64,000 nucleotides of DNA from the NCBI GenBank assembly GCA_964016885.1, contig OZ024751.1:30628001-30692000 (forward strand). Reading direction: 5' to 3'. The position numbers were made by a program, and so were the translations under genes. How positions within the stretch are numbered: the first letter of the stretch is position 1; each line of letters opens with the position of its first letter. Of this stretch, positions 41,367-46,659 are shown piece by piece. This DNA is from Eledone cirrhosa (Eukaryota). The notes under the pieces are model-generated. The model searched no databases. It saw only the letters and a list, made by a program, of their open reading frames with translations, and was not told the origin of the DNA.

Positions 41367-41986
41367 TATGTATGTGTGTATGTATGTGTGTATGTATGTG
41401 TGTATGTATGTGTGTATGTATGTATGTATGTATGTGTGTATGTATGTATGTGTGTATTTATGTATGTGTGTATGTATGTATGTATGTATGCATGTGTGTA
41501 TGTATGTATGTATGTATGTATGTATGTATGTATGTATGTATGTATGTATGTATGTATGTATGCATGTATGTATGTATGTAGGTATGTGTGTATGCATATG
41601 TGTATGTATGCATGTATGTATGTATGTGTGTATGTATGTATGTGTGTATTTATGTATGTGTGTATGTATGTATGTATGTATGTATGTATGTATGCATGTG
41701 TGTATGTATGTATGTATGTATGTGTGTATGTATGTATGTATGTATGTATGTATGTATGTATGTATGTATGTATGCATGTTTTTATGTGTGTATGTATGTA
41801 TGTATGTATGCATGTGTGTATGTGTGTATGTATGTATGTATGTATGTATGTGTGTATGCATGTGTGTATGTGTGTATGTGTGTATGTATGTATGTATGTA
41901 TGCATGTGTGTATGTATGTATGTATGTATGTATGTATGTATGTATGTATGCATGTGTGTATGTGTGTATGCATGTATGTATGTATG
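41367..41986. repeat. (TATG)n compound microsatellite at the LINE 3' flank; resumes at 46204-46446
   Basis: Direct inspection. Confidence 0.95.
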
Positions 41987-44900
41987 TTTTCTCTTTCTCT
42001 TAATTTCGAGTATATTTTTTTGACCGGCCACCTTCCTGGTGGCAAGGTTGTAAAAGAAAAGAAATTGTCATCCCTTGAATCGCAAGAATGTTTTGCATAT
42101 TTTGAAGGTGCCAGCTATCGCAGCCATTTGTAGACTATGAATTAGGGAGCTGCGCTTTTTGTCCGCAAATCCAAGTTCGGTCATACTTTGGTCCAAGCGG
42201 GTTGGTATATAACCCGTAGCACCAATAATGATGGGTATGAAGCTAAAGGTGTATCTTGGATACTGGATTTGTAAGCTCCTCATCAATGGTCCGTAGATGT
42301 CCTCCTTCTCCTGTATTTTTCTGACAACGTTTACATCAAGTGGGCAGCTGATCTCCACAACAGAACACGTTTTCAATGTGTGGTCCCAAACTACAATATC
42401 AGGCCGGTTGTGCTTTAATTTGGTGGCAGTTTTTATTTTCAGGTTCCACCAGTATTCCTTAGTGCCATCTGTCTCAATATATTCTTCCTCGTTTGTTGTT
42501 AATTTTGTTTTCCGAAGTGCGTTCCAGATAGTTCTAGCTATCCCATCGTGTCTCATGGGGAGGTAGTAGCGAGATGACATTCTTTCGCAGCTGGCAACAA
42601 TGTGGCTTACATCCTCGATCTTTGTTTTACATAGCCTACATTTATTGTCAGCTGCTGGCCCTCCTCTTTTGTGCAGCAGATATTTGGTAGGGAGTTCTTG
42701 TTCCTGTATTGCATAGAGATATCCCTCAAGGTGTGATGTCATAAACTTGTCGGAACTCCATGCCAGGCTTTTTGAGTGGTTTATCCCCTCTATGGTCTGT
42801 GTTTTACGCCTCAAGTATCCATGCACAACTTTCTCTGTAAATTGGTCAATTTTTTTTTCTTGTTTGAACATTGAATAGGATCTTCCGATTTCTCTGGGTG
42901 AGAGATTTATATCAGGCTTTATTCCATATCTCTCCTCCAGATCAGTCGCTATTCTAATGATATTTCTTTTTTCATGCTCATAAACCTGAGCAAGATGGTC
43001 GCCAACCTTTTTCCTCTGTTGAAGGTGTTGCTTCAGTGTTACTATCCGGGTCTCATATGTTGTTAATATTGATTTTAGACCCCGGCCACCTTCCTTGCGT
43101 GAGAAGTATAGCCTATCCACATCACCATTGATGTTAAAGTTCCCAGTAACACTGAGAAGTTTACGAGTTCTAACATCCATCTCACTTAGTTCTTGCAATG
43201 ACCAGTTCAGTAGGCCAAATGTTGGCGTTATAATTGGCACAGCATAGGTATTGTGGGCAATGTATTTGTTGTATGCTGACAGTTCTGATGACCATATTTT
43301 TTTTACTCTTCTGAGGTATTCAGTTCTGGTTCTCTCCTTATTTATGGGTCCATCATATCTGACATTCTCATCCTGTCCAAGATATCTGTAGTTGTCACCT
43401 GACTGCAGAGGTTGTATTGTCAGGCCGTTCATATCTAGATTTCTAGAGGAGGGCACAGCTCTTCCACGTTTTACTGCCAAATATGCACACTTGGACTCAC
43501 CAAATTTCATTTTGATGTCGGTTGAAAATTGTGTAATGAGGTCCAATTGTTTCTTGATGTCATTGATATTTGGCCCATACAACTTCAGGTCATCAACAAA
43601 GAAAAGATGGGAGATACTTCTGGGCCCACTTCTTTGTCCACCTTGTTTCCTGAGTAGGTAAGATAGTGGATTCAGTGAGAGAACGAAGAGTAGTACTGAC
43701 AAGCTATCACCCTGAAAGATGCCCTTCTGGTAATGTATCCTATCAGTCTTAACCTGCTCCTTCTCACCTCTAAGGATCAAATTGGTGTACCAGTTCTTGG
43801 TCAGGCGTTCAACAGCAGCTACTAATGGTTGTGGGACTTTAGCTAACTGTAAAGCCTTAATAATCCACCCATGAGGTACACTATCAAATGCTTTTTGATA
43901 GTCCAGCCACACGACAGTCATGTTTCTGCGATTCTTTGTTGTTTTTTCCTGAATCATTTTGTTAGTTAGTAGGTGATCTATGCAACCCCACACCTCCCTC
44001 TTTCCACCAGCTTGCTCAGGTGTTATGATGTTGTTGGTAGCACAGTGATCCTGTAAGAACAGGTTAAGGCACCCAGTATATAATTTATACATGATGTTTT
44101 GGCAGGCAATTGGGCGGTAATTTTTAGCAAGGGTGGTTTGGCTATTTTTGGGAATGAGGAGAGTAGTGGCAGTTGATAACCATCTGGGCAGTTCTTGTGT
44201 GCCCTTAATGGTTTCTGTAAACAGCCGTATGAGATCTTGCCGATAGAAAGTGAAATTCTTCAACCAGTATCCTGTAATGAGGTCTGGGCCTGGCGATTTC
44301 CTATTCGACATTTTCTGTAGAGCTGTTTCCAGTATTGACCCATCTATGTCATATTGTTTTGTCTGGACATGTTGGCAGTAGTCCTGTTCCAGTTGTTTTA
44401 GCCAATTAGCTTGTCTGTTGAATCCGTCATCCGTTTCCCATACAGATCTCCAGTAGTTCTCAACCTGTTCTTTTGAAGGGGTGTCGTTTACAGGGATTGA
44501 GCTTTTGCCACCGAAGCTGCGATAAACTGATTTAGGATCTCTGGCAAACAATCTATTTAGCACTTGTCGTTTATGGGCTGTTGACTTATATTTTAGTCTT
44601 TCTGTTGTAGCTGTGAGTTGTTGTTTCAACTGGTGTAATTTGGAGTTCAAAGTTTTAAATTTGGTATCTCCAAATCGTCTCTCTAACTTTTTCTTTAGGT
44701 CTTCCTGGTGTCGTGTGAAGTTTCTCTCTATGTTGCATTTCATAACGACTGCGATGTGTGAGATACTTCGTCTCAGGGACAAAATTTTGGTTTTTAAATT
44801 TCGCATCCACGCTGGTTCAGGCTTTCTGTTTGTATCTTGATTGCGTGGTTTTAGATGTGTGTTATATGATAGCAATGTGACAGCTGAAACATATAACAAA

Positions 44901-46203: not shown

Positions 46204-46659
46204 TGTATGTATGTATGTATGTATGTATGTATGTATGTATGTATGTATGTATGTATGTATGTATGTATGTATGTATGTATGCATGTGTGTATGTGTGTAT
46301 GTGTGTATGTATGTATGTATGTATATATGTGTGTGTATGTGTGTATGTGTGTATGTATGTATGTATGTATGTGTGTATGTATGTATGTGTGTATGTATGT
46401 ATGTATGCATGTGTGTATGTGTGTATGTATGTATGTATGTGTGTGTGAAAGATTGTCCTTTTTGTTTTTCTAGCCGTGTGTCTATCTTGGTAGGAGTGTT
46501 GTATTAAGAGATGCAGAATTAGTGACGGGTTTATGGCGGAGCTGGTTCCGGATGACGACGTTACAGCGGACCACAGCCGTCAGCTGGGGTTGCTGGCTGT
46601 CTTGTATATGGCCGTTGTCGATGGTTTATGATGCTTGGGAGCTGGTGGGGATAGGGGGG

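Follow-up and report, generated by a model that had tools for sequence, protein, structure and literature searches.

R4/Dong retrotransposons are described as having an architecture that includes a divergent N-terminal Myb/SANT-like domain and lacks N-terminal zinc fingers, and their target is given as (TAA)n in most insects, molluscs and cnidarians (PMC7998251). A second source names TAA as the target of Dong and ACAY as that of the APE-type Waldo elements (PMC3812793). The window analysed here, a 64,000-nt stretch of Eledone cirrhosa DNA, contains an element of R4/Dong type, termed family A, that lies in (CATA)n. By their published descriptions, Dong of Bombyx mori, DongAg, DongBg and Darwinula Dong1/2 resemble family A in having a single ORF, a reverse transcriptase (RT), a restriction-like endonuclease (RLE), a Myb/SANT-like domain, no zinc fingers and a microsatellite target; they differ in that this target is (TAA)n rather than (CATA)n.

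Dong-R4 elements are also described as abundant and young in octopuses. O. vulgaris carries five recently active families with 1129 insertions (PMC13282606), and a full-ORF Dong consensus is reported for O. bimaculoides (PMC9115989). These octopus elements are known here by description rather than by sequence, and one of their families may be orthologous to family A. The accessible parts of PMC13282606 and PMC9115989 state no target for them, and neither CATA nor TACA occurs in one supplement of PMC13282606.

Other systems share single traits with family A. The ACAY microsatellites targeted by Waldo (WaldoAg1, WaldoAg2, WaldoFs1; R1 clade, insects) include the CATA repeat (PMC3812793), but Waldo uses an APE endonuclease where family A has a restriction-like nuclease; since the enzymes are unrelated, a common target would be convergent. 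Togen, whose target is (TG)n (PMC4640811), and some HERO families are RLE elements with microsatellite targets, likened here by description rather than sequence, that belong to other clades and use other repeats. R2Bm and R2Tg serve as the model for nicking and target-primed reverse transcription, but they target 28S rDNA, carry N-terminal zinc fingers and share 17-19% identity with family A.

No CATA target for an R4/Dong element was found in the literature searched; Repbase, Dfam and Fell et al. 2025, a survey of 4,464 assemblies (per PMC13586686), lie outside that scope and may contain one. The accessible parts of PMC3124438, PMC7650587 and PMC13708176 hold nothing on such a target. The novelty lies in the pairing of a (CATA)n target with an R4/Dong restriction-like enzyme, the repeat itself being already described as a Waldo target. 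The evidence below makes it highly probable that family A is an intact, recent R4/Dong-type element that inserts into pre-existing (CATA)n in one orientation, likely through recognition and nicking of the repeat by its own protein.

The window element and its protein

The window holds a full-length copy of family A. The original prediction had described an uninterrupted ORF of 1169 aa combining RT and restriction-like endonuclease, with both element ends abutting CATA on the sense strand, and both points held on closer analysis. The ORF has no internal stop, matches RVT_1 and carries an endonuclease motif, and the sense-strand junctions (slash) read ...CATACA/ATGGCG at 46203 and GAGAAAA/CATAC at 41987. 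The features are as follows, in window coordinates:

12818-13061, plus strand: older, 5'-truncated copy of family A, 92% identity, CATA on both sides
39431-39918, plus strand: family B, another RLE family associated with CATA; copy truncated at its 5' end, (CATA)n confined to the 3' end
41987-46203, minus strand: full-length family A non-LTR retrotransposon, 4217 nt, ends set against 66 other genome copies
41367-41986, minus strand: degenerate (CATA)n array of about 620 nt, downstream of the element
41987-42067, minus strand: 3' UTR, 81 nt, terminal bases GAGAAAGAGAAAA
42068-45577, minus strand: single ORF, 1169 aa plus stop (42071-45577 without the stop)
42173-42556, minus strand: restriction-like endonuclease (RHD, PD1060, E1075, K1091), approximate limits
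42587-42640, minus strand: CCHC zinc knuckle C980-C983-H992-C997, from sequence, aligned to the R2 knuckle
43400-44155, minus strand: reverse transcriptase core, residues 475-726 (Pfam RVT_1, E 3.6e-25)
45344-45556, minus strand: basic arm at the N-terminus (RPNRNY) followed by a Myb/SANT-like domain predicted to form three helices, residues 8-78
45578-46203, minus strand: 5' UTR, 626 nt
46204-46446, minus strand: upstream (CATA)n array on the element sense strand, about 237 nt, degenerate, 78 nt pure at the junction

The downstream and upstream arrays of this copy match in their variant profiles (cosine 0.91). Compared with copy L061, its 5' UTR carries a private tandem duplication of 26 nt (46140-46191) and has lost 32 nt.

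Two further insertions in the window had been listed as ending in CATA in the same orientation, which holds with one correction. The insertion at 12818-13061 belongs to the same family and has CATA on both sides, but that at 39441-39918 (alignable from 39431) ends in (CATA)n yet proved to be family B, with 48% amino-acid identity to family A over 88 aa; it has no 5' CATA junction and therefore supports a 3' association only. A decayed fragment of another RLE element, at 54420-54812 on the minus strand, shows 26% identity to the knuckle and endonuclease, with no repeat flank seen. The window also contains short tandem arrays at 19808-20072 and 20132-20381, with 67-nt and 58-nt units, about four copies each, that are 96-98% alike.

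The protein has the R4/Dong architecture: a single ORF with RT, CCHC knuckle and PD-(D/E)xK restriction-like endonuclease. No APE domain was found, the C-terminal nuclease being restriction-like instead, and no zinc-finger motif was seen in the N-terminal sequence. The PD..E..K motif is formed by P1059-D1060, E1075 and K1091; P1059, D1060 and K1091 are invariant in 61/61 rows scored. The closest solved structures are R2 proteins, both by sequence (E 4.5e-29) and by predicted fold (E 4.4e-35, TM 0.58; whole-protein model pLDDT 87.5).

The Myb-like domain is modelled by AlphaFold as three helices (pLDDT 88.6). Its best folds, Zeste, TRF1, NgTRF and CDC5, are mostly of Myb/SANT type and are matched at modest Z scores of 5-6 (up to 6.0). 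A Myb_Rap1 cluster value of 0.85 serves as a lead only, and Foldseek with the N-terminal domain gave no match at E 0.001. The domain is homologous to the equivalent region of TAA-flanked elements.

The untranslated regions were analysed for structure and ribozymes. The stop codon and 3' UTR of family A fold with a z of -2.36, and the 5' end forms two small hairpins (z -1.6 to -0.1). No Rfam ribozyme was found in the element at gathering score, the only matches being repeat-driven miRNA ones below cut-off. An HDV-like 5' ribozyme has been demonstrated for Bombyx Dong (PMC3774820) and for R4, whereas a descriptor for such ribozymes, run without a positive control, matched nothing in families A and B.

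CATA repeats at insertion junctions across the genome

When the 3.0-Gb genome was searched with the terminal 244 nt of the element, the 40 matches scored out of 883 candidates were all on C1 and all 100% identical, and an exact 25-nt 5'-end pattern occurs 315 times genome-wide. The 32 full-length copies fetched have a mean pairwise distance of 0.25%, and 22 of them keep the 1169-aa ORF. To judge from these sequences, family A is intact, large and recently multiplied, and the earlier description of the element as potentially active is backed by the intact ORFs and the low divergence. The 24 sequencing runs listed with the element include none of RNA, which says nothing either way about its expression.

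The junctions were scored in 66 other copies, 34 truncated and 32 full-length. Forty were the matches from the 3'-end search and 26 came from a 5' search, in which 29 of 40 non-self matches were fetched and three overlapping ones removed; the queries of both searches were free of repeat array. Under a strict rule, requiring at least three perfect CATA units ending no more than 8 nt from the 5' junction, 29/34 truncated and 30/32 full-length copies pass. The same rule is satisfied at 0.92% of positions in the window and, across 12 arbitrarily chosen 10-kb stretches, at 0.073% of the 238,560 strand-positions, so the association with CATA is more than chance. In the 40 nt upstream, the dominant repeat is sense CATA in 65/66 copies, TA in one and antisense CATA in 0/66. 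Downstream, CATA is dominant in 64/66 copies, and insertion into (TAA)n was seen in 0/66.

The exact 5' ends on C1 agree with this picture. All 68 touch CATA, 67 of them in an array. Among the 49 without ATACATACA, 37 pass the strict rule and 48 are CATA-dominant upstream; the remaining one has a short CATA tract behind another copy. The original prediction of a (CATA)n-targeting lineage is thereby supported as a genomic pattern: the flanks are non-random against a background of 0.07-0.9%, the polarity is fixed, and the 5' junctions of truncated copies, far from mostly lacking CATA, are CATA-dominant in 34/34.

These figures leave scarcely any credibility to random insertion followed by selective survival, or to an assembly artefact, in repeat-rich regions. 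The genome is indeed rich in microsatellites, as such an explanation would need, but polarity and controls largely refute it: the insertions face one way, other families in the same genome have other flanks, and the identity of all 40 scored copies over their last 244 nt left little time for purging.

The comparison families further define the pattern. Family B has downstream CATA at 29/30 loci, and a count made by eye shows the strict 5' rule satisfied at about 15 of the 28 junctions that are visible; it is older than family A, often interrupted, and looser in its 5' association. Family E, a Dong-like family with a 1216-aa protein, together with a few older relatives in the same genome, has (AAT)n downstream in 30/30 loci. 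In an RTE control family, of which 17/30 loci ran off the fetched stretch, the visible 5' junctions show sense CATA in 0/13 and the antisense repeat in 3/13, with several in TA. A 609-nt non-coding element is bordered by CATA at 15/30 and 13/30 of its ends, and often by TA. Because the RTE control and the 609-nt element also use CATA arrays, these arrays are general insertion hot spots. Among the elements compared, use of the CATA strand is confined to families A and B, and family A almost never uses TA, although the 12 arbitrary stretches (120 kb) contain 164 TA arrays and 24 CA arrays against 9 of CATA, TA being 18-fold commoner than CATA.

Several further observations concern these neighbours. 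Truncated copies of the RTE control family (L171-L200) often have a 5' junction in (TA)n or (TATG)n and favour these arrays too. The 609-nt repeat and a related variant lie at 10517-10927 and about 12330-12690 in the window and at L104:275-883, between CATA or TA arrays. The repeat, for which Rfam gives no match at cut-off, is probably a short element that an RTE-type LINE carries along. Where it lies beside family A copies, its breakpoints suggest that it faces the opposite way to them.

The 5' ends also divide family A. The 5' junction reads ATACA/ATGG in each of the 32 full-length copies most similar to the one in the window. An invariant TACA/ATGG across the whole family was considered and rejected: ATACATACA is present at 96/315 exact 5' ends genome-wide and 19/68 on C1, and the C1 ends without it are mostly of an older subfamily with ragged junctions that nevertheless lie within CATA. 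The two 5' subfamilies (L368-L416 versus L061-L089) differ by one base in the second hairpin, GATAATCGGAC in the older and GATAATTGGAC in the youngest. The older shows extra A or T at its ragged junctions, and the youngest has the fixed TACA/ATGG.

Target, tail and the proposed mechanism

Two lines of evidence separate target from tail. Truncation points are spread over element positions 137-3974, and the CATA upstream of truncated copies is therefore not element sequence. The two flanks of a locus also resemble each other in their variant 6-mer profiles (cosine 0.63 versus 0.32; 0/5000 permutations; 20 informative loci of 67); since the flanks share locus-specific variants, the arrays pre-exist insertion. 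As far as sequence comparison can tell, CATA is target, not only tail.

Duplication of the target site was assessed with two tests, and neither revealed a constant length. In the first, an interrupted stretch of 10-40 nt recurs on both sides of the element at 9/43 informative loci, against 1.8 in shuffles (maximum 6); in the second, which allowed long extra tracts, the count of 8/54 against 3.1 lies within the shuffle maximum of 9. Pure repeats hide such a duplication. At L066, a rare CTATCTATCT interruption directly follows the element and recurs about 150 nt upstream of it.

This locus reads as a 24-26 nt duplication with about 150 nt of extra CATA tract, and it would also suit a different explanation, in which the element itself writes CATA at both ends, as an RT-added tail or by slippage, and the arrays are products of insertion. 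The upstream runs, long and often pure, and the many arrays that are tails of other elements point the same way. We nevertheless regard it as very improbable, as it conflicts with the locus-specific variants common to both flanks, with a pure part of only 3-22 nt at the 5' junction in degenerate arrays, and with the presence of CATA upstream of every truncated copy. Insertion into existing arrays remains the preferred reading.

The junctions bear on how the ends are joined. Among clean truncated junctions, 13/24 continue the CATA phase into the element for at least 2 nt, against 8% expected, which fits 5' joining through short pairing. Arrays are longer upstream (median 81 nt) than downstream (median 39 nt; Wilcoxon p 0.001), where the shortest run is about 7 nt. 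Of the bases just downstream, the first four are near-invariant (65, 65, 64 and 64 of 65) and later ones vary; part of the 3' CATA may therefore be RNA-encoded, and a short CAUA tail on family A RNA is possible.

The near-invariant bases and the short minimum run would both be expected if RNA-DNA pairing set the specificity, with CAUA-ended RNA selecting among nicks made in TA-rich repeats by a loosely specific endonuclease, the element's own or another's; RTE-type elements do enter these arrays from the opposite strand. This alternative is unlikely, however. Pure TA and CA arrays are far commoner yet almost never used, the long CATA is upstream, where 3' pairing gives no selection, and both the catalytic residues and a clade-specific N-terminal arm are preserved.

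Recognition by the element's own protein is thus retained as the leading explanation. The position, polarity, youth and domain content of the copies are read directly from the genome, and specificity of the enzyme for CATA is likely by analogy with the R2 mechanism. From R2 biology, the N-terminal arm and Myb-like domain would bind the repeat, mostly upstream of the site, and the restriction-like domain would nick the TATG strand. At the nick the RT would start copying at the 3' end of the RNA, possibly helped by a few CAUA bases that pair with the target. The cDNA, full-length or truncated, would be joined at the 5' side via short pairing with the CATA strand. CATA would be left on both sides of every insertion, so that arrays could be reused and fill with stacked elements.

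Lineage and significance

Relationships were examined in a quick IQ-TREE analysis of the RT region (82 rows, LG+G4, SH-aLRT only, RTE outgroup), with short-segment loci left out and no named reference such as Dong, R4 or Rex6 among the rows. Loci L201 and L204 fall together with families A and B within a 39-row clade (SH-aLRT 100), for 4/39 members of which the repeat flank was determined. All 19 AAT-labelled rows lie outside it, among them family E, which is TAA-flanked and from the same genome. (CTTA)n flanks L201 on both sides and L204 on the 3' side, and these two loci may come from one host. The nearest relatives outside the clade are TAA-flanked elements: family A shows 41% RT identity to family E, and matches of this kind have an E value of about 1e-120, against 4.5e-29 for R2. 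Families A and B are 55% identical in the RT region and are not sisters, so the target switch looks old. Taken as a whole, the tree suggests that one Dong sub-lineage, comprising A, B and the two CTTA-flanked relatives, exchanged TAA for a four-base CWTA repeat long ago.

The wider searches add to the taxonomic picture. The nearest named protein, from Argonauta hians (56% identity), is the sister row of family A in the RT tree, which makes an octopod host probable. Assembled contigs from three other organisms cover all 30 element bins but show junctions poorly; in one run the loose contig ends both read CAT, which is no more than a weak hint. About 20 of 80 metagenome loci show (AAT)n after the ORF. 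Scans of genome and viral contigs gave no new CWTA-flanked locus among those inspected (5/19 loci checked for repeats). L249:298-681 and L242:687-884 are distant Dong-like relatives, the former with two tandem Myb-like domains.

The N-terminal region distinguishes the clade. In the arm ahead of the Myb-like domain, R12 and Y14 are kept in 32/33 rows and R9 in 27/33, but the arm is not conserved in 28 more distant rows, and the third helix of the domain differs between the two sets. Family A lies in a clade separate from all TAA-flanked rows and carries a conserved R-R-x-x-R-x-Y arm that those rows lack. A fuller account can be offered tentatively, on balance somewhat short of probable: family A would belong to an undescribed, widespread R4/Dong sub-lineage that moved long ago from (TAA)n to CWTA through the gain of this arm and a changed recognition helix in its single Myb-like domain, and its youngest subfamily would have fixed TACA/ATGG as if carrying target bases on its RNA.

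The divergent Myb-like domain has been proposed as the basis on which R4/Dong elements select their targets, a proposal argued from homology in the papers cited here. To this the window contributes a copy that is still intact, counts across the whole genome set beside controls, and a candidate module for specificity. With two young families that use different repeats in the same genome, and a CTTA relative one base away, specificity can be tested by domain swap. Copies of family E (L311-L317), such as the intact, (TAA)n-flanked L311:1042-4689 on the minus strand, offer a comparator for such swaps. If the interpretation is correct, young intact CATA- and TAA-specific enzymes coexist in one genome and a CTTA version exists among relatives; within this natural set, exchanging 70 residues could retarget an RLE integrase. 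The engineering value is modest, since (CATA)n arrays lie scattered and do not form a single safe locus. For the genome itself, family A explains part of its structure, in which CATA arrays are filled by stacked elements of several kinds.
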